A stretch of DNA of 64,000 bases from Mytilus trossulus (lineage: Eukaryota): assembly GCF_036588685.1 (NCBI RefSeq), contig NC_086374.1:13454001-13518000 (forward strand), written 5' to 3'. A program made the position numbers and the translations under genes. Of the stretch, positions 3,301 through 62,915 are shown piece after piece. How positions within the stretch are numbered: the stretch's first letter is position 1; each line of letters opens with the position of its first letter. The notes beneath the pieces were generated by a model that saw only the letters and a program-made list of their open reading frames with translations, made no database searches and was not told the origin of the DNA.

Positions 3301-6300
3301 ACCTATATGGTACAGGAAAGGCAAACTTTTCTTTCATATCTACACTCATAAAAGGCACATATTCTCTTCCATTAATAAAGGAGGTTTTTCTGAGCACAGC
3401 TATCTCTTCTTTTGAGTAATCAGATGGACCAAGAGTTATCAAACCAGTCCTTGCTGTCTTGTTTGGTGCATTTGTCCTTTGATTATGTGCAGTAGTCTCC
3501 CCTTCATCTAAGAAGGCACCATGGCCTAATGGTGCCACTTTCTTTTCAGGTAACTTCCCTACATTTCCTTTCTTAGTTATTGCTTGTTTTACCACCTCTG
3601 CCCTAAATTGAAAAATAAAATTGGGGAAACTAGTGCAATTTTTTTCATAACTTAACAAATCATACTGAAGTCAAATCTATTTTTTTTTATCAGTTTGGAC
3701 TGATTTCAAATTTACAATAATATAATCTAATTAAAGTGAAATTGGTCGCTGCAGAGATTTAATTCTAATTCAGATTTTGATCAAAGGAGTAGGTCCGTTA
3801 AGACCTCTTTTTGGCCCCAAAATATAGCCGTTTTACAAAATTGTTAAAATATAAACTTTTACTTATTTATTGGATAGTAGAATGGTTCTGCTACATAAAT
3901 ATGGGCTGTTTTTGACAATACAATGCACATATATTGGGTACTAGCACCATGAAGTCGTGCTAAATTACTGAAATCTTCACAATTCCAGCATTTTAGTTAA
4001 ACTTTAGACGGTTTCCGGGTAAAACGAAAGTGGCCGCATTCGTGTTCATCCAAAATATTGAAATGGAAGTTGTATTTGATGATGATACATAATATATGTA
4101 AAGATTGAGGATGAACACGGATGCGGCCACTTTCGTTTTTGACAAAAACCATCTGAAAAGTGACTTTTTTTTGGATATTTGGTAGATTTTTCATATTTGA
4201 GCTTGAATCAGATCGTTTTTAATGACTTAATAAGTTAAAATCTTGCACATAAATTAATTGAATCATATGAAATAGACACTTAAGTGTTTAAAAAGTGGTC
4301 AAAATCTTTCGTCAGATGAAACTGAAATTTGGGGCCAAAATCAGTCCTTACCGGACCTACTCCTTTTGTAAGCATTTAAAACTTGTTAAATTGCACCTGA
4401 ATTAATTATAAATAAAATGCTCTACTAGTGTGCAGCTTGATACACTGCAGATGTTCAACCCTGAACACAATGATGTATTCTTCTGTCTCTGATTATATAT
4501 TGTAAACTGACCTATCCAAAGCACTCTTAGCCATCTTTTCAACCTTTGCTTGTAAACTTTTGTCAGACGTATTGCTCCTCTGTAATAAAGAAAATCAGAA
4601 TAGAACAAGTTATATTTATATTTTCCAATCATTGTTATAGATTATTACATTTCATATTTTCTTGGTTATTGTGCATACAGATGTATTATATAACTGCAAA
4701 TATTTCAGATAATTTTTTCAAAATTTCAGTGAAAATTTTCACTTTAATTTGAAATAACAAAATGATTTATTGCCACAACATGCCAAATTAGAATTTATGG
4801 ACCAATTGGTCATCTAAAATATACTTACTACTTGATCTATATAATTTTTGGGAGAAGACACAATTGTTAAATCTGTGTGTCTAAACAAAATATCTCACAT
4901 TCAGCTTCATAAACAATTTTTAATGCAAGGGGTATCAATTTAAAAGGAACTGTTCCAATAAATGAATGGACATACAATTTATTTTTATCTCTAAGAAATT
5001 TTAAGGGGTGAACAAAAAGAATCTTGAACAACTGTTACTAGTTGATATATAAGGTATTTTTAAATATGTAACTCCTAATAGCCATTGTTATGAGCATCCA
5101 TTTTTGTTCTTATGTTGGCATTTTACTCAACTTACTCTGTTTTCAAAGTTTACAGAATAAAGCCTATGTTTTTAAATCATAATGATGAGCATGAACCTCA
5201 GGACTTTTAATCAATCAAATAATCTATTAGAGTACTTAACCTTTAACAGACATAATACCAATGAATATATTGTAGGTTGAGTAAATTTCAATAAGAATGC
5301 AAGACAAAAACACAAGATCACCAAAACAAACACGTAAGAGGTCAACTTATGCTGAGTTCACACATAATTCATATTCGATTTGCATTAACTAATTCGAATT
5401 GGAATGCGTTTCAAATTCGCTTTGTTGTCCTAACGACGTTAACTTTTAATTTGGATTAACAAAAACATGTTTCTAATGAGAATTATTTAATTCGAATTAG
5501 CTTATTCGAATTAAAAAAAGAAGAATGTGAGAACGCGATTAGCGAATTCGATTCGCCTTTCGATTTGAATTCAAATCAAATCAAAGGTACGTGTGAACGA
5601 GGCATGAGAGTCTTCAACCATGGATATGCATCATCATGTAAGCAGGGAGCTGTTTGCAGTAACTTAAGTGACTTAAGTGACAATAATAGAGTTTTATGAA
5701 ATAGCATTGATAAATTTGATTGATTTATTCTTACAATCTTTAGAAATAATTCCACTGCTTCAGAGTAGAGTTCTACAGCATCTTTAAGGTTTTCAGATTC
5801 ATCTTCATCAAATGCTTGGTTCAACAAAAATGTTGCTCTTTCAAGGTTTAACTGAATAATATCAAATAATTACTAACATAAACATTGGCTTGTAAGTATA
5901 AATACTGGTATGTATTTTAAAATACTTAAAATATTGAAGCAAACTTGGTCTTTCATCATACTTCTACTGTTACTGTACCTGTATAAACTCCGACTCAGTT
6001 CATTTTTAATTCTCTTCAAAGTTTGGTAGTTAATCTTATTTGCTATATCATACTTTCATCATATCAACCTGACATTATGACTATCTCTTAACCATCAACA
6101 TATTCTTATCAAAAACTTTCTTCTGCCAATTTTGTTTTTACTTTCTTTGAATAATCTTTGTAAGTTTTTTGATTTTTTTAATTAATCAAAGTTTTATTGC
6201 ACTTTTGCTGTTAACAATTTATCTTTGTAAGTTTTCAAGCAAAATTTGACTTGTATAAGTTTCAGTAGAATAATACAAATTATATCTAATTTTAAATACT

Positions 6301-10744: not shown

Positions 10745-13700
10745 ATGGTGTCGAAAAGACTTGGACGCATTACGTGGCTATTATTTTTGTCTCACATATG
10801 GATAGCTAAGAGCTGGGATACTGATGATCTTGAACTTTTTGATCTGGTTGAAGAGGTCAACCGAAACTTCTATGAAGTTTTAGGCGTAGACCAGGTATTG
10901 TCACAAATTTAACATTATATTGTGATTACCATAAGGTAATTTTGTCCATTTGGGTGATCCTTTTCGGAATTTTGTTTCTGGAGCGATTAAAAGTGATTAT
11001 TTTTGCTTCTTTAAAAGAAATTTGCAAAATGGAAAATGCAAAAAATGAAAAAATGAAAAAATTTGCGTCCCCTCCCCCTTAAAAAAATGATGGTGGCCAT
11101 ACACCTTATCGCCATTTCAGCATTTGTCTGCCATTGTATGTATGTATGTACGAAGATCCCTCTGTGAGCGGAGCACCCCTCGATTGTTGCGAGGGTACAG
11201 TGGAATCTGTGTACACTCCCTATCAGGATTAATGGAGATGTGTCACTAACTTATATACTTCTACTTCTATGTGGTTAATCTGCAGTTGGAAAATCCATAA
11301 CGCAAATATACTGTGCGCGTGTGTCAACCAGTACACGCCAAGTTAAAAATAACACAAACTTTGTGTATTTACAGGAACAAAAACAAATCAAATTATGTGA
11401 TGTTTGCAACAACTGTACAGGGTTAAAATCAGGCATCAATAGTTACGCCAGGAACTGCCACACACAGACCCGGAAGGCGACTGTTGTGGGAGCTTGGATG
11501 GCACTTTCAGGTAGTTGGTTCCAGTCAACAATTGTTCTTGGGATGAAACTGTATTTATACGCATCCATTGAAGTGCTGACTCTGGAAAACCTGTCTCTGT
11601 GGTATTGTCGGGTTGTTACAGTTGGTCTTCTGATGTAATCTGGAATAATGACTGATGCTTCTCCATATAGGATCTTATAAAGGAGTATGAGTCTGGCTCC
11701 TTGTCTGCGTGTTGCTAGTGTTGGCCAGCCAAGTGTCTGTAGGATGTTGGTTACAGTTCCTGGTTCCCGAGAATAAGTTGATGTTACAAATCGGGCAGCA
11801 CTTCGTTGTACCATCTCGATTTGGTTAATATGGCACTTTTTATATGGGTCCCACACTGCAGATGCATACTCAAGGTGTGGTTGGACTAATGTTTTGTATG
11901 CACTCTCTTTTATGTCTTGTGGGCACTTATTTAAGTTCCTCCTTAAAAATCCAAGTGTTCTGTTGGCTTTTGATGTTGCTTTTGTTATATGATGGTCCCA
12001 ATTCATGTCCTCTGATAGTTCTAAGCCGAGGTATGGGTAGTGCTGAACAGTTTCCAGGTAATGCCCCATCATATGGTAGTTGTGAACGACAGGGTTGCGT
12101 TTTCTGGTTACCCTAAGGATGAAACATTTTGCTGGATGGAATGTCATCTGCCAGCGTCTTGCCCATTCTACCAGTTGCGTAAGGTCTTGTTGTAGCTGCT
12201 GGCATGTACCTGAGTTGTGGACGCTTCTGTACAAAAGGGAGTCATCAGCAAACAGTCGTAGACTGGTACATGGCCATGGCCACCACCAGGACAATTCCAA
12301 ACCCAATACAGAGGGAGTGTTAGGAGACACAGGGAAGTCTGTTATTATGGTGAATGAAACTGAAGAACCTCGTGGAAAACCACTGGGCTTCTTGGCGGGA
12401 ACAGACAAACTGAAGAGATATCTATATAGATTGATCTCCAGGTCAAAGTCGGGGACCACTTTGACCAACCATGGCCCCCAAAGTACCCATTCTAGTTTAA
12501 TCTCCGGTCTAGGTCCCAGAGATGTGTGTGGGAGGATGAAAATCACCCTACTAATGGTACTGAATTTCCAGCGCCCCGAGTCAGGATCGAACCCGGGACC
12601 TTCAGCACTGCAGCCATCAGTCTAAACCACTAGGCCATGAACCAACATTTAGAAAACTGGTCATCAAAAGGCTCCACGTACAGTTTTGACATCACATTCA
12701 AAATATATGACTTCACAATTGAAAAGTAATTGTACAGTTGCTATATGACGTCAATAGATTTAATGGCACAGATTTTTAAATAATGATTCATGTAAAATGT
12801 ATTGGCCTTGCCAATTAGTGGTTGCCATACTTAAATCTGATATCGTGTCTGTTCGGTCCCATACAGGTTAGCAATCTACACATTCGACCCCTGAGTTTAT
12901 TCATACCCAATTTTTATTCAAGGATATTTGGAATGATTAGATGCATACCTGCCAACTTTTAAAAATGCCCACGGGGGTTTAAGGGTGCGACAACAATTTC
13001 AAAGGTTACAATTCTTTGCGACGACTTTGTTGCACGTGCTGTTTTGTAGTCTAGAAAAAGTGTCATATTTGTAAGATGAGCTTACATGCCTTTTTCTTAA
13101 GTTTATTTGCATGATTCTAGTTATTATATCAGCAGAAAATATGAACATGTAGCTGTAAGACCAGGAATTATTTTCATGTGTAAGGATACTAAATAGTTGT
13201 TGACTTTTCCAATTTAAAATTATACACAAAGAAGGACCTTTATCAAGTTAGGAACAACACCTAGGGATCCCCTCTCAATGTTAGGACATTAAAAACCACT
13301 TTTAAGTACATCTGATGTCTTGAAGGATGTATACATGTACAACAAATTCAATTATGAATCAAAATATATTTTCATGACTAAAAAGTCATATATTTTTTTA
13401 ATTTTTTTTTGAGGGTTGGGGGGATTTGATAGTGCAGGTAAATTTTTGTAGAGGTAGTCTATCGCCCTATTGAGTTATATATAATGTATATTAGACATCT
13501 AGAATATTTTTTGCCTATCATATAATTTTAAAAGTAATGGTATAATTTAACAGTTCAATAACATTTAAAAATAATAAATGGCTATGAGTATGAAAGGATT
13601 ACTAGGTTTATCAACCATATTCCTAATAATTTCCTCAGCGGATTGAATTGGGAATCATTATTGACTGCTTCTGGAAACTCTCACATGCTTTTCAATTAAT

Positions 13701-53434: not shown

Positions 53435-56400
53435 ATGTCTATAATAAGAACTGTAGCCTCATCAGCTTTACAACAAAGCAAGGTATGAGGTTATCACGTT
53501 ATATCAAAATAAGAGGAGAAATTACACTCGGAGGCATGTCATCAAGACAGCGTAGTTAATTAAAATTAAATTATGACCTCCCATAATTTTGCCTATCGTG
53601 TTCCGATTACGAAATCGTCTGAGTGATTTTTTTTCTTGAATATTCAATCACAGTAGCATGCTACTAAACTTTAAAAGACAGAGTATAAAACAGTTTTAAG
53701 ACTTGTTTCTCAAAAGGGTTAAATCAATTGATATTTATGACATGTCCTTTTCAATAGGCCATAATTTGCATAAAGAGTTTGAATCGTTTTGCAATGAATT
53801 CTAGTCAAATCGGCACCTGGTCAATTGGGCACCCGTTATAGTCTAATTGGCACCTGGTCAAATCGGCACCCAATGGTAGTCATTTCAGCACCCTAGTCCA
53901 AATAATTATGACGTCTTGAAAGGCTATTATGATTTTTTTCTTTGACGCCTTACGTCGAAGTAAGGCGTCAAGCCTTTCAAGACGTCATAATCATTTGGAC
54001 TATTCAGCACCCATGTTACACCGGTTGGGTTCAACCCACCAAATGGGGAACTGGTTTCCAAATTAGTAACAATCCCTCATTTAAGTACAGTGAAGTCCCC
54101 TGTGACTTTGCGGCCTGTGATATCATGCATTAGCTGTTTTCGTCATATCAACACAGTAACACAAATAAAATCCATCTTGTTATTGTTTTAGCCTTCCGAA
54201 GGGATAAAAAGGATTAAAATTGATAAGTTCAAGAGTTAATTAATAACTGCAATCCAGTGATTTATCATATTTGGCCAATATTTCCATTAAAACAAATTAC
54301 ATCATCAGATAGAATTTGTTTTATTTAAGTCAGATTTATATCAGATTGAAATAATTTTTGCTCTGTATCCTTGGCAGTGTCCTTGGTTCTAATTCAGCTA
54401 TATTTTGTAGTCAAAATATTTCCATTATTCAAAATAAGCTTTTTTTGGAAGGCATGCATGAAACTTACGGGATATTGAGGGAACTCTCAGAATAGGGTTT
54501 TGAACACACATTACACAAATCTAGAGGATGAAACCATACAAACAGAAGATTTTATGAAATAAAAGTATGTTATGAATGTCTTCACACAAAGTTATCCAAT
54601 TATTGGTTTTATCAGTTGAATGAAGTGAAGTCTTAAGTCTTGGGTGTGCGGATACACTGGACTGCACCGTTATCATTTGATAGTGCTAAAAAACAAAAAT
54701 TTCTAAAAATGGCTAATGGGTCTTTTAAGTTAAAATGGCACAAATTTATAGAAAATGAAACAACTTTTTCCAAAGAACTATATTTTTATTATGGGTTTTT
54801 AAAAAAAGTTACAAGCCTTGAAAATAGTCAAATTTTCTAAGTTTTCATCATGTTCATAGGCCTGTATCTTCTCAGTAAATCAAGATAAGGATAGTCATCT
54901 TTTGGAAACTTTGCTGCATTTCTCATGAATATGTGCCATTTTAATAATAAAAAAAACACTCCGGTAGGAAAATTTTGTTATTCAGCACTATCAAATGATT
55001 ACTCAAATGAGGGATTGTTACTCATTTGGGGAACAGTTCCCCATTTGGTTGGTTGTGCCCAACCTGTTAAATATGTTTAATTATATGTTTTCAATGTTTT
55101 AAAATCATAATAAAAAAATGTTATGACCAGAAATATTTACTTTCTGTGGTTTCTCAAAGATGTTTGTTAGTTATAAAATTTGGAATTGATTTTATCTATA
55201 TAAAAAAAAGATGTCATATGATTGCAAATGAGACAACTCTTTACAAATAAGGGACCAAATGACACCGATATTTTAAACAACTATAGGTCACGGACACTGC
55301 TGTTTGCATGCTCCAATATTGAATTGTAGGGAAGACTTTAAAAGTTGGAGAAAAGGTTTTATCATCTTCATTCTTGCCATATTTTTGAAATGTTCTTATT
55401 TTCCATTTATGTTTAAACACCAACAACGTGTTAAGTATTAACATCGAAATTTGTATATTTTCTTTTGCATATTTCTGTTTGTTACCGTTTGTTTTAAGCT
55501 AGTCCAAAAGTATTTTTTTTCAATCAAAAGCAGATCTGGAGTAAAACATTGAATATCGATGAAGCATTCTGGTTTCACATAATGTTTTTCTCGTTACATT
55601 GAAGACCTGTTGGTGACCTTCCGCTGTTGTTTTTTCTATGGTTGGTTTGTTGTCTCTTTGATACATTCCCCATTTCCATTCTCAATTTTACATAGATATG
55701 TGTGTTTATTTTTATCAGTATTATGTAAAACTTAAGCATATCTGTATTGCATGAAAATTGAATCTGATTACAAAATAAGGATTTAAAAATATATACCAGA
55801 CTAAGATATATAATGCCTGATCCAGCAACTGTTCCTTTTTCATACATGTGTGGTGTAATTTGTTTTAAGAATGAAATATTTGTCACAAGACCTTAAACAG
55901 ACACACTCTAAAAAAATAAAAAAGCAAAATAATTTGAAAAAAGGTGCAAATACATGTTTTGTCAAATGTAAAAAATCATTTTGTTATTTTGGGTGTTTAA
56001 ATAAAGATTTTCTATTTTACTAGGTGCTGTTTCCAGCTGCCTCAATAGGTGCACGAAATTCATCTTCCAGCACAGTAAGTAACTTTTATTTTTCGTGAGT
56101 GACAACTGTCTATAAACAGAATTTTATAAAGAAGGGTAACTTTTTATTTACGAAAAAGGCTGTGGAAGCATAAATTGAAAGTGAAAAATACAAAAATGGT
56201 TTAGGGCAGAATAATGATTTGTGTACCCAGTATTCCAGCTAGGATTCAAAAAGGGCATGGAGCAAATCATGAAAAGGACACTTAAGCATGATGAATGATA
56301 ATTCAAAAAGGGCATGTCAGACATTGTCTTTTATTATGTAAACACCGTAATGTAGAAACTGAAAACAGCAAAATTTGACCGGTGCATTTGATGGGCTTAA

Positions 56401-59400
56401 AGCTGGTGTCTGTGTAGAATATATGAATTGGTTTCTAAGCAGTTTACAAAATGAAAAGAATAAAACCCTGAGAAATTATAATAGCTTTTTTTATCGGTTG
56501 AAATTTGTTATAGTTTATTTCAAACTTGACTAGAAATCACAAGGTAATTTATTGTAACACTCCATTGGATAGAAACCAGATAAATATTTTAGGCTCCATG
56601 AAGCATTGATAACTAGTCAAATGGGGGGAGAGGAATGCTTTTTATTTAAAACATTTTTTTCTTTTTCTTAAAAATGTCTCTTTTCTTCAATTATTCCTTT
56701 TATAAACTTTAATTTGCGAGGAGCCATTAATATTATGAATGAACCTTTACATGATCAATAAGTGAGGAACTAAAATGCAATCATTGTTATGAATTAAAAC
56801 TTATAAATGTACCTAGAAGTTGAATTATTATGATTTTAAACACCTTAGTTTTTAGCATGTTCAGGCTTGAATGATTATGCTGATCAGCCAAGTGAGAATG
56901 TTTTTTAAATAGACACATCAAGGATGAATTAAAATCTGTTGTTGTAAGAATTATTATATTGATATGAAAATATATTATCTGCTATCCTGTTTTAATTGAA
57001 ACAATTTTTTCAGCATTTAATCAGAAAATATTTTAATATACAATATTGTGTTAAAATGCAAAGGGATAAGATTACATAGCTATTTTCTTGAAGTTTAATT
57101 TTACTTAATATTTCTGTGCGATTATTTTCCTTTAAAGCTACACTAAGGAGATGGGTTTTCTCAGTTGAATAGAGACTGTGGTGACACCATAAGCCTAAGG
57201 GTATAGCATCAAACAGATTATTTATGGTCTTTTAAACTTAAGGAACCATTTTAGTAATATCTCTTCTCAAGGATATCACTTTTAGAGGATTTATAGCAGA
57301 TAGACTCCCTTTTGAGTTAAGATTCATTGATAACCTTAAGTATCAGAAATACTTCAGCTTTTAAAGGGCGATAAATAGCCAAAACCATCATTTTTAACAC
57401 CTATTCTTCCTAACTAGTGTGAAGAATATCATTGTAGAAGATACAGGTACTAGAACAAGTAGATGCCTACGATGGCAAATATTATGTTGACCCCCTAGTT
57501 ACTTCATTGATTAATTTTACAGAACTTGAAGGATGTATTAGCAGACTTGATACCAGAAAAACAGAAAGAAGTTGTAGCCTTAAGAAAGGAGTATGGAAAC
57601 AAGAAAGTTGGTGAAGTGACACTGGATATGGTAATATAATCATTATGATCAATACATTTCAGGATAATTGTATATTAATGGTGAAAAAAAGGGCAAACAA
57701 AAAAGAAAAATGTGAAGAAAAGTCATTCTTAAAAAAAAGTATTCATTCAACACTATAAACTAATAAGTGATACAGGGAACAGATGCACAACACTGAACAG
57801 CAGTATAAATGTAATCATGTCTGCTTACACAGTCTGCACAGAAAACTTTTTCATCTACTTGTCTGGAAAATAAATATCAAATTTTCTCTATATGACTATA
57901 TAAAATTTTGAAAATTTTCACTAGTCCTAAATCAAAATTTACTAGTCTGGGGCATTGGACTAGTGGCTAACCGTGCAGACTGCTTACATAAATTTAAAGT
58001 CTAAGGGTTGGTAAAACTTACAACAAACATTAAAGTAATGTGTTAGAGTTAGTTAGAAAAAAATACATTTTAATATTACTTAGCATCTGATTGTGTCTGT
58101 CCATTGGTCTGCAAACACATCTTGGGTTGAAGTCATAAAACTTTGCTCAGTGCTTGGAGCACTAAAATTATGCTCGAAACATGATATCCACCATTTTGAT
58201 TGGTTGATTTTGGAGTATGAGTACAAAAAATTGACTTGAAAATTTTATGACCTTAAGGCCAGGGTCACCTTAACAAATATGATTCGACTTGGTTAAAAAT
58301 GATCAAAATTAACTTAAGACTATTTAGAGCTCGGTATAACTATCATTAAGTGTCACGTATCTTATTTTTCATTATACTTGATTTACAAGTTAGAAATGAT
58401 TGTATACATATAAGCAACAAGTGAAATACAGTTGGAAGACTACTAGTAATACTACAATATTTCATTACCTTTTAGTTCTTTACACATTTAATATGCAATA
58501 CCAGAGATGTGCATTCTATTAAATAATGATTTCAGATCTATGGTGGTATGAGAGGAATAAAAGGCTTAGTAACAGAAACTTCAGTCTTAGACCCAGATGA
58601 AGGCATCAGATTTAGAGGGTACAGTATCCCAGAGTGTCAGAAAATATTACCAAGGGGGAATGCAGGAAAGGGAGAGGAACCACTTCCAGAGGGACTCTTC
58701 TGGTTATTATGTACAGGACAAGTGCCATCACAAGAACAAGCAGATGCTATATCTGAGGTAAGTTATAGCAACTCTTCTTATCAACACATACATGTCTGCC
58801 ACGGAAGCAGACAGTCATAGTTTCAACCACTATTGGGCTTAGTTCATCTATCAGTATCATAACACTTTATGTTCAATTTTTTTTTGCCGACAAATGATTT
58901 GTTTGTTTCTGTTCCTCATGAAAGCCACTAAAAATATTCCTGTTTTCATAAGATTTTGATAAGAATTAAGTAATTTTCACTTATTTGTGACAATGATAAG
59001 AACATTGTTTTTTGTTTCTTTGTCTTTTTCTAATCTATTCATTGTGATAAATGATAGGAATATTATTTTTTTATAGTACCTTTTAGTCAATTCTCTCTTT
59101 TTACAGTGTATAAATAAGTTTGTGCACAATGTTTCATTACTTATATATGACCTGTTATCATAGTAGGAATGATTAAAATATACTCATAATCAGTAGAAGA
59201 TTAAGATTGCATTAAAGATTAGAACTGTAATATTTTAATTTATTTTGTAGGAATGGAACAAAAGAGCTGCATTACCAAACCATGTGATAACCATGTTAAA
59301 CAATTTCCCATCAAACCTTCACCCAATGTCTCAGTTTAGTGCAGGAATTACAGCCCTCAACAGTGAAAGTAAATTTGCAAAAGCTTATTCTGATGGCGTT

Positions 59401-62400
59401 AAAAAAGCATCATATTGGGAGGTAAATTATTTGTTATTGAAGACAGTAAATTTTCTTGTAATGTTGGTTTTATTAGAACGTAAAATTTCTTGTAATGTTG
59501 GTTTTATTAGAACCATAATGTTTTGTCACCCATTTACATTTTGTTGCTCTTAACCTCACATTTACATCAGTATACAGTACTGAAAATTCAGAAGTTATTG
59601 CAACTTTAACAATGTGAATAGGTCAGTAATAAATGAAATCCCATTCTGATATGTGATACATACATGTATAGCTATAAGAAGATTTTATTAAATCACAAAA
59701 AATAATCTCAAGTTTCGACTCATTCTTTGCAAGACACAACAATAAATGCATGAAATAATTTCTGAATTTACAACATGAGACTGGAAATAACATAAATACT
59801 GTTGTGTAAGTGGAGGAAGCTAATTATCTCCCTTCCAAGGAAAAGAAGTTAGAAATCTATAACTGAAATAATAACTAAATTATTTAAGTCAGCATCTGAA
59901 TAGGGAAATGATAAAATTGGAAGACTCTTTATCCTATTGTCTTATAAAGAAGTATAATTCACACATATTTGTAACCTGTGCAAGTTGAGCTATTTTCTTA
60001 CTTCAAAGCTTGAAAGCCTGTTTACTAACGAAAAGATACATTGATGAACATAAAAATAAAGTTGCAAAAAAAATATTAGAACAAGAAAAACAGTAGGTTA
60101 TACTATGTTAAATGATTTTTGCTTGCAGTTACTGAAAGCAAATACAAAGTATTTCACATGCTGATATAAAAGAATATAGTTTAATGTATATTAAATGTGT
60201 TTCATATTGTTACAGTATGTGTATGAAGATTCTATGGATATGATTGCAAAGTTACCAACAGTGGCATCTATAATCTACAGAAATCTATACCGTGATGGTA
60301 CAGCTGTAACAGCTATTGACAATAAAAAAGATTGGAGTTGGAACTTCTGTTCTATGTTAGGTTATGACAATGCTGATTTCATAGAACTGATGAGAATGTA
60401 TCTTACAATTCATAGGTAGGAATAACTTAGTCACCCATCAAGGATAGGATTGTTGTTTATGTATGCAATGGAATAGAGGAATACTTGTACAATGTATTAC
60501 ATTCAGTTAAAAAAAACATTGGCCAATATAGCATTATACATTTTACTTTCCTTCGACCAAGGAGGGAGAGTCGACAGCATTTGGTGTTTTTCATGAAATT
60601 TTATTCTTATCCTCTGTAACAACTGGTTCTTTTTAATAGAAAGTAATTATTTCACATACAAAACAAAGACTATCAGTTGTAATTTTGATTTTGCTATAGA
60701 CATTAAACAGTTTTTGAATAATTTTTCTGCAGTAATGTTCATCAACATGATATTTATTGAATTTTTTTCCTTAAATTGTTTCTTTTTGTAAACCAATTAA
60801 CCTTTCCACTGATAGTTGCCCTGACAGATTCTACTTTTAGACGGTGGTTTCCTTGGCTATTATGACTTAAGTTGGAGATCTTCATAATAAATATCATTCA
60901 AAACTTGTCTGGCAACAGGGTTAAGTAAGTCATTGGTATCTTGATAGAAATTTTAAGATATTTGTAAAAGTCTATAATTCAAGTAGATGAAATAGTAAAT
61001 GTATTTCATTGTGTTTTCAGTGTCCATGAAGGAGGAAATGAAGTGCTCATATCACACATTTAGTGGGAAGTGCTTTATCAGATCCATATCTTAGTTTCAC
61101 TTGTTTAAATGTAATTTCATCCTATTTTCAGTGACCATGAAGGAGGAAATATCAGTGCTCATACCACACATTTTGTAGGAAGTGCTTTATCAGATCCATA
61201 TCTTAGTTTCACTTGTTTTAATGTTATTTCATCCTATTTTCAGTGACCATGAAGGAGGAAATGTCAGTGCTCATACCACACATTTCGTAGGAAGTGCTTT
61301 ATCAGATCCATATCTTAGTTTCACTTGTTTTAATGTTATTTCATCCTATTTTCAGTGACCATGAAGGAGGAAATGTCAGTGCTCATACCACACATTTAGT
61401 AGGAAGTGCTTTATCAGATCCATATCTTAGTTTTGCAGCTGGTATGAATGGCTTAGCTGGACCTCTCCATGGATTGGCAAATCAGGTGATTAATAGCAAA
61501 ACAGAATACTTAAGTTTTGTCATTCAAAGTATTTGTTCTGTTACAAGACTTGGAAAGTTTACTGACAGGTCTTTGTAGTTAAGCATCTTTTTTAAAGGCT
61601 TCAGTAACTTTTATACTTTAAGTTCGTATGATTTAGAGACATCCGATTCTGACAATTTGAAAAGCAAGAAAGTCAATCAAGTTCCAATTTCAGTAATGAC
61701 ACTATCATTGTTCTCTTCCTCCTTGTTTAAATAGAACAAGAATGTGTCCTCAGTACACGAATGCCCCACTTGCACTATCATTTTCTATGTTCAGTGGACG
61801 GTGAAATTTGGGTAAAATCTCTAATTTGGCATTAATATTAGAAAGATCATATCATAAGGAACATGTGTACCAAGTTTGAAGTCAATTGGACTTCAACTTC
61901 ATCAAAAACTACCTTGACCAAAAACTTTTACCTGAAGCGGGACGAACAGACGCACAGACCAGAAAACATAATGCCCCTCTACTATCGTAGGTGGGGCATA
62001 AAAATTGCTAAATTTGTCAATTCCTCACTCTAATATTAGTCTGCATTAACCAAATGTCAAAAAACTTATACACATACTTATTACCACCAAAAATGGATCA
62101 AGTTGAAATATGGACTACATCATTTCCCCTTTCTTGAGTTATGTCCCTTAATAAATGAAAAAACTGCAAAAATTTCTGTTTTGACACTCTAACTTTGGTT
62201 TACCTTAACCAAATGTTGTAAATTTTAAATTTGGGTGGCATTGCAATCACTGTTCTTGGGTTATGTCCCTTTCTTAATTGAAAAATTAGATAGAAACCTA
62301 CTTTGGAAATCAGTAAGTTGATGATTGAAGCTCAAATTTCCTAAATTAAAAAAAATAGGCTTATATCAGTATCTGATTTGGAGTTAAGTGTTGCATACCT

Positions 62401-62915
62401 GTTTTGTTGAACTACGTTGTAATATACATTACTGGTTAATGCCAGCTAAAGCCCTCCTCTTGGTCCAACATTTCTCACTTTGTTGAAGACTCATTGATAG
62501 CCTTTGACTGTTTTCTGCTCTTTGGTTTGGTTAAAACCAGTGAAATATGTATGTCAATTTATTGTGTCCACTCTTCTTTAGATAGATTCTTCTTTTATTT
62601 TAGGAAGTACTTGTATGGTTAACAAAGGTTCAAGAGGATGTAGGAAAAGATTTTTCAGAAGAGAAAATGCGAGACTGGGTTTGGAATACCCTAAAATCTG
62701 GACAGGTTATTCCAGGATATGGTCATGCTGTATTGAGGAAGACAGATCCAAGATATACATGTCAGAGAGAGTTTGCTTTGAGAAAACTCCCTAATGATCC
62801 ATTGTTTAAATTGGTATCAGCTCTCTATAAGGTCACACCAGATGTTTTGATAGAACAGGGTAAAGCCAAGAATCCATGGCCTAATGTAGATGCACATAGT
62901 GGAGTTTTATTACAG
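53435..62915 (+). CDS. CS: Citrate synthase, mitochondrial; 3'-partial (final exon not found in the window)
   Basis: Exons 53435-53482, 56024-56074, 57523-57630, 58536-58757, 59251-59421, 60216-60415, 61356-61485, 62604-62915 (GT-AG, in phase). Presequence-like [16 protein letters not shown]; motifs [62 protein letters not shown] and WPNVDAHSG. Confidence 0.97.
53796..53893 (+). mobile_element. Left arm of the same foldback/MULE-like family as 8958-10329
   Basis: gaattctagtcaaatcggcacctggtc followed by further ggcacc units. No right arm was found. Confidence 0.75.
53894..54002. mobile_element. 109-bp palindromic mini-element with a 10-bp TSD
   Basis: tagtccaaataattatgacgtcttgaaaggct ... agcctttcaagacgtcataatcatttggacta, flanked by ttcagcaccc at 53884-53893 and 54003-54012. 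Confidence 0.85.
54020..55066. mobile_element. ~1-kb non-autonomous TIR element inserted at a TTAA-like site
   Basis: ggttgggttcaacccaccaaatggggaactg pairs with cagttccccatttggttggttgtgcccaacc. The flanks rejoin as catgttaaatatgtttaat, matching the sequence that follows the foldback arm at ~9050. Confidence 0.7.
58125..58262. repeat. Small MITE family also present at ~8297-8374
   Basis: cataaaactttgctcagtgct..gagcac...atgctcgaaa...ttttatgacc...aggcca occurs at both sites. Confidence 0.6.
60997..61433 (+). repeat. Tandem array of four ~112-bp units, each comprising a splice acceptor plus the 5' part of CS exon 7
   Basis: ttttcag|tg(a/t)ccatgaaggaggaaat...gatccatatcttagttt, with acceptor AGs ending at 61020, 61131, 61243 and 61355. 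Confidence 0.97.
61735..62004 (-). mobile_element. Short HINE-like element
   Basis: Minus-strand 5' tttttatgccccacctacgatagtagaggggcat hairpin, (GTCY)n tract, and 3' ggggcat plus hairpin gtgtactgaggacac followed by cttgtt. Confidence 0.7.

Follow-up and report, generated by a model that had tools for sequence, protein, structure and literature searches.

Results

The citrate synthase gene and its exons

The window analysed here, 64,000 nucleotides of genomic DNA from Mytilus trossulus, carries a gene that by its sequence is a eukaryotic mitochondrial citrate synthase (Table 1). A stretch beyond the window was added to complete the gene model, which comprises nine exons of 48, 51, 108, 222, 171, 200, 130, 312 and 168 nt and, with the acceptor leading into 61356, encodes 469 aa. 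The protein was identical to the public protein P0127 at 469/469 positions and to three further Mytilus citrate synthases, named as such at source, at 463–464 of 469 positions; these four public proteins are all 469 aa long and free of inserts. P0127 matched the Pfam family PF00285 (Citrate_synt) with 330 bits, above the cut-off, and exon 7 aligned to pig citrate synthase (1cts) with an E-value of 1.7e-21. The introns flanking exon 7 measure 940 and 1118 nt. When the genome was queried with exon 8, exon 7 and PF00285, no second citrate synthase locus was found among the best candidates, which were the ones scored.

Several other features were observed in the window. Intron 5 contains a 34-bp two-copy tandem duplication (59446–59513, 97%), which begins 24 nt past the donor and excludes it. 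An open frame of 392 codons on the minus strand (11446–12621) showed a weak match to RVT_1 (E = 0.00077, below the cut-off) and is likely a retroelement piece, and a second minus-strand frame (5579–5869) with a match to the MIT domain (E = 8e-10) is an exon of a neighbouring gene.

Table 1. Exons of the citrate synthase gene and units of the tandem array in front of exon 7, in window coordinates.
Feature	Position	Strand	Remark
Exon 1, coding part from ATG	53435–53482	+	nine-exon model
Exon 2	56024–56074	+	nine-exon model
Exon 3	57523–57630	+	nine-exon model
Exon 4, 222 nt	58536–58757	+	nine-exon model
Exon 5	59251–59421	+	nine-exon model
Exon 6; donor at 60416, phase 2	60216–60415	+	nine-exon model
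Unit 1: diverged acceptor (AG ends 61020) + 77-nt exon-like part	60996–61097	+	oldest-looking copy
Unit 2: 34-nt intron piece (AG ends 61131) + 78-nt exon-like part	61098–61209	+	
Unit 3: intron piece (AG ends 61243) identical to that of unit 4 + 78-nt exon-like part	61210–61321	+	
Unit 4: functional acceptor (AG ends 61355) + first 78 nt of exon 7	61322–61433	+	
Exon 7, 130 nt, 1cts residues 237–279; donor at 61486	61356–61485	+	model, 1cts match
Exon 8, 312 nt	62604–62915	+	nine-exon model
Exon 9, 168 nt	3240 nt past exon 8, outside the window		nine-exon model

A tandem array at the intron 6/exon 7 boundary

TRF reported a tandem repeat at 60996–61433 (period 112, 3.9 copies, 94% matches, score 771). 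Its 112-bp unit joins 34 nt of the end of intron 6 to 78 nt of the start of exon 7, and four units stand head to tail, with acceptor AGs spaced 111, 112 and 112 nt apart as described in the original prediction. All three upstream units have kept the AG, and a candidate branch point and a pyrimidine tract are present in each unit; the intron piece of unit 1 is shorter than that of units 2–4 and diverged from it. In line with the original prediction and with the 469-aa model, unit 4 alone runs up to the donor at 61486; the genuine boundary is that of the last unit, and the coding sequence stays unaltered. The extra units make intron 6 longer by 335 nt and add no new intron. Among the 16 exon ends tested (exons 1–8), only the acceptor end of exon 7 had near copies within 3 kb, and a 701-base stretch containing the array had a single match in the genome.

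Relative to unit 4, the exon part shows one difference in unit 3, two in unit 2, and four substitutions plus a 1-nt deletion in unit 1, so that the predicted rise of divergence with distance was borne out. Two statements of the original prediction had to be given up. It had assigned the same peptide to each unit, and no upstream unit encodes it intact: unit 1 has a D>V change and a frameshift, unit 2 V>I and L>F, and unit 3 L>F. It had further described the repeat as an active-site half-exon. Since exon 7 corresponds to residues 237–279 of 1cts, the duplicated part covers approximately residues 237–262, and His274, which we take to be the catalytic residue of citrate synthase, lies only in the part of exon 7 that follows unit 4.

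No match upstream of unit 1 was found for roughly the first 8–9 letters of the intron piece (61098–61105 and the corresponding letters in units 3 and 4). These letters may be filler added during duplication or sequence that has been lost from the flank of unit 1; as their source, a lone 8-nt reverse match 2.7 kb away (within about 11 kb) was dismissed as a chance match. Judged by contig depth, the sequence just upstream of unit 1 (about 60779–60972) is itself a repeat, less abundant than the very high-copy repeat in intron 7 (about 61735–62004), and it may stand in place of the intron sequence that originally preceded unit 1.

Predicted products of the upstream acceptors

Exons 1–6 were joined in silico to each of the four acceptors and translated. 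As the original prediction had it, all three upstream acceptors led to premature stops: use of 61021 gave a TAG at 61061–61063 after 14 exon 7 residues (280 aa), and use of 61132 and 61244 gave a TGA at 61244 and 61356, respectively (304 aa in both cases). The original prediction had also observed that the TGA falls exactly on a unit start; this follows from the unit length (112 mod 3 = 1) together with the first letters of the exon, TGA, and it was ruled out as a designed feature. Exon 7 would measure 465, 354, 242 or 130 nt with the acceptor of unit 1, 2, 3 or 4, respectively, and the stops reached through units 1, 2 and 3 precede the exon 7/8 junction by 422, 239 and 127 nt, respectively. 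A stop more than 50–55 nt upstream of a later junction exposes an mRNA to NMD. Given these distances, mRNAs made with the upstream acceptors are predicted NMD substrates, so that the fate originally proposed for leaky transcripts holds as a prediction.

Over positions −69 to +42, the acceptor of unit 3 does not differ from the real one, in agreement with the original prediction, and units 3 and 4 are therefore not separable by local sequence. Identity extends from −18 to +19 in unit 2 and from −7 to +2 in unit 1, whose acceptor differs in several places from −8 on and has a pyrimidine share of 0.60 vs 0.70. One could read this as the trace of selection that weakened the older copies against a small, constant and mildly harmful leak at unit 3, the array being a tolerated burden, a reading with which the finding of a sole citrate synthase locus is also compatible. 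We consider this explanation very unlikely: the exon part of unit 1 is likewise the most diverged, so that age explains the weakening, its pyrimidine share is still within the range of the gene's real acceptors (0.55–0.70), and unit 3 is not weakened at all.

On a crude scale of U1 complementarity, the best GT sites in units 1–3 scored 6–6.5 vs 8.5 at 61486; the gene's eight donors score 5–9, three of them 5–7, so that weak donors may be present inside units 1–3. Separately, a donor-like GT at 61442, in the unique part of exon 7 outside the repeat unit, scored 8 vs 8.5 at 61486 on the same crude scale; its use would remove 44 nt of exon 7 and shift the frame. An RNA structure hiding one of the acceptors was rejected (z = +1.68; 95 of 100 shuffles fold equally well). 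None of the 137 proteins compared carried the tail predicted for read-through of unit 2 or unit 3, a weak result with few Mytilus proteins among them; P0002 and P0063, which belong to this set and show a doubled motif, are unrelated proteins.

The array in other DNA samples

Logan contigs of four public DNA runs from three studies (taken from 24 public runs) were compared with the window, and the findings for each run refer to the contig pieces listed. In run X1, which is possibly the same sample as the assembly, one contig joins unit 1 to the upstream intron and stops at 61095, the very point at which unit 1 runs into the shared 31-mers, and another (61290–61431) crosses a unit junction (32 + 110 letters) at a depth of 98 vs 44–46 in the flanks. 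In run X2, from another study and under another species label, unit 1 is included in a contig (60770–61095) whose 326 nt differ from the window once, and a second contig begins at 61404 and continues through the remainder of exon 7. A contig of run X3 (depth 15.9) carries 61151G (+20), the window's T at +43, and 61205C (+74, Ser>Arg), of which the last is found in no unit of the window; it crosses a unit junction, with inferred ends at about 61143 and 61267. In run X12, a contig (61068–61209) with the intron piece of unit 2 differs from the window only at +20 and +43, where it has the functional letter in both cases; its reach on one side of the junction is 30 letters, which misses the bridging rule by one.

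Hence, the unit variants differ between runs, unit 1 being nearly unchanged in X2, and other animals carry the duplication as well, with unit variants that differ from those of the window. The repeat depth in X2 implies about 48 vs 5–9 in the flanks; this depth is not a copy count and hints at more repeat copies in X2. The contigs of X1 and X12 do not cover the second half of exon 7, a gap that carries no weight. Since no listed contig spans the whole array, the count of four units rests on the assembly alone. This last point would suit an assembly artefact, in which alleles or misjoined reads were stacked into a false tandem array. Such an error is extremely improbable, as the frameshifted unit 1, joined to the upstream intron, is present in X1 and X2, and unit junctions are crossed in X1, in X3 (with inferred contig ends) and in X12 (with 30 letters on one side). 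The original prediction had likewise argued against an assembly error, and contigs from three studies that contain the array together with unit variants absent from the window bear this out.

History and constraint of the units

Units 1 and 2 share an A at two places in the intron piece where units 3 and 4 have a T. Position +43 is changed in units 2 and 3 (T and C, respectively, vs A), and position +20 is changed in unit 2 only. From this pattern, a single duplication of 34 nt of intron and 78 nt of exon would have given rise to unit 1, and a second copy would then have become unit 2. Further units would have been added by unequal crossing-over, with unit 3 combining a left part of the unit 4 type with a right part of the unit 2 type, since its intron piece is that of unit 4 and its +43 site, like that of unit 2, is changed. 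The contig of run X12 looks like a unit before the changes at +20 and +43.

The copies contain about seven distinct substitutions, of which one or two are synonymous vs 23% expected by chance (p = 0.66–1.0), and unit 1 also carries its frameshift. They bear no mark of constraint, in a test of little power on a small number of changes.

A likely second repeat at exon 8 of a related mussel lineage

In a related mussel, the open reading frames P0003 and P0121–P0123 read from the intron through exon 8, the counterpart of 62604–62915 in the window, into the next intron. In 4/4 of these genomic frames, the start of exon 8 recurs as a degenerate copy, preceded by residues resembling an intron end, 37 residues (111 nt, in frame) upstream of the real start; in P0003, 11 of 16 residues of the copy are alike. 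The 37-residue insert was found in 0 of 8 long proteins of the same lineage, which likely stem from transcripts, as their contigs measure 1.6–4.3 kb. Known at the protein level, the exon 8 repeat is likely an independent acceptor-side repeat in the same gene, of the mirage kind described below for lancelets, and suggests that such repeats may arise often in mussels and be skipped. A search of JGI metagenome contigs with P0003 as query revealed no mussel locus among the best 80 of 579 stretches (top identities 67–81%).

Discussion

By its build, the array is an acceptor-side 'mirage' minisatellite, the three extra copies of which are likely removed with intron 6 and decay without function. Exon 7 is likely defined across its length, given the sizes of its two flanking introns, and the acceptor nearest to the single donor, which yields the 130-nt exon, would win over those yielding 242, 354 and 465 nt. 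Choice across the exon is also the likely reason why the last acceptor would be used, as proposed in the original prediction. An indirect sign of regular splicing is that no insert is present in the four public Mytilus proteins of 469 aa. For human introns longer than 250 nt, PMC9225289 describes a cross-exon proximity rule: minigenes with competing 5' sites, on which alone the minigene test was made, use the nearer site exclusively, and where long introns flank 3' sites of equal strength, the preference for the upstream site is described as reduced, not as abolished. The identity of the unit 3 acceptor with the real one speaks against entirely clean skipping, as does the use of nearby repeated donors besides the real one in the human CBS and 6-16 genes (PMC1557585). 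Some leak to the unit 3 acceptor is plausible, since the resulting exon of 242 nt would be within the range of this gene's exons (222 and 312 nt). Any leaked, stop-bearing mRNA is predicted to be cleared by NMD, so that the array would be tolerated and the remaining copies would be subject to neutral decay.

The original prediction had gone further and proposed that copy number acts as a heritable dial on citrate synthase expression: a share of transcripts that depends on copy number would use the upstream acceptors, mainly that of unit 3, and be lost to NMD, resulting in less enzyme. Several observations would fit such a dial, including the sequence identity of unit 3 together with an exon length in the normal range, the stops 127–422 nt before the next junction, the unit variants between samples with the elevated repeat depth in X2 (a hint at more copies and not a copy count), and the extra donors used in CBS and 6-16 (PMC1557585); moreover, the title of a work cited by PMC1557585 ties the CBS VNTR to lower activity. 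On the other hand, lancelet mirages are reported not to disturb splicing (PMC3087553, PMC3902484), the length of the human ABCA7 VNTR had no effect on NMD (PMC5954066), and the mussel copies decay without visible constraint. In addition, each added copy lies ever farther from the donor, so that little added leak per copy would be expected, and the weak comparison of 137 proteins revealed no read-through tail. We therefore find the dial unsupported and regard it as unlikely. A broader version, in which copy number segregates in mussels and tunes the enzyme through NMD and in which the gene gained such a repeat on two occasions (once at exon 7 of Mytilus, once at exon 8 of another mussel lineage), appears less likely still.

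Taken as a mirage minisatellite, the array extends a phenomenon known from lancelets to a core metabolic gene of a mussel. Arrays of this type confuse read mapping and gene models, here at exon 7. The locus also offers a natural test piece for acceptor-side choice across the exon: in an invertebrate with varying alleles, one donor is faced by 3' splice sites at distances of 130, 242, 354 and 465 nt. For this choice, the human data described in PMC9225289 are less clear than for donors. If it were true that leak scales with copy number, the array would be an uncommon case of a heritable splicing dial acting on a housekeeping enzyme, at the entry step of the TCA cycle.

Comparison with known systems

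No paper on the locus was found in the literature on Mytilus citrate synthase splicing, judged by title and the start of the abstract, and a search for mirage minisatellites and splicing returned none on mussels. Internal gene duplications are common according to Gao and Lynch 2009, as cited by PMC4974935 and PMC2809761. Such duplications and intron gain by tandem duplication, as in the potato RdRp gene (PMC4974935), resemble the mussel array in that a tandem duplication across an intron–exon boundary turned the surplus intronic. The mussel case differs in that the old intron 6 was lengthened and no new intron arose.

Human VNTRs on the donor side, described in PMC1557585 for F7 intron 7 (37 bp), CBS intron 13, 6-16, lamin B2 and PDGF, share with the mussel array the repetition of an exon–intron junction and the presence of identical spare splice sites. 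According to that source, F7, lamin B2 and PDGF use the real donor alone, and CBS and 6-16 also use copies nearby; splicing mainly goes to whichever site is nearest across the exon. The orientation differs, as the human VNTRs repeat the 5' site downstream of the exon and the mussel array repeats the 3' site upstream of it. The VNTR in intron 18 of human ABCA7 (PMC5954066) consists of a 25-bp donor-side unit and has a very large length range. Use of its repeated donors yields a frameshifted, NMD-sensitive transcript, which for the mussel array is the predicted outcome. ABCA7 is also where length was tested as a dial: expression fell with length, according to the authors not via the stop-bearing transcripts.

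The closest counterpart is the lancelet globin gene BflGb6, in which tandem copies of the 3' end of an intron together with the 5' portion of exon 2 were named mirages (PMC3087553). These units measure 150–160 bp, are 81–100% identical and number six and three on two haplotypes, and RT-PCR suggested regular splicing; PMC3902484 describes a further mirage in PGBD5 and cites those of Adh (Adh3) and troponin C, with no aberrant mRNAs. As far as described there, the BflGb6 and mussel arrays are alike in their head-to-tail arrangement of an intron 3' end and an exon 5' part, their few copies, their similar unit size (150–160 vs 112 bp), the strongest divergence of the outermost copies and the differences between alleles. 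A difference in copy number was shown for BflGb6 and is only hinted at for the mussel array, and splicing was checked by RT-PCR in BflGb6, whereas the mussel array is known from DNA alone. The mussel array also differs in being located in a mollusc and in a single-locus housekeeping enzyme.
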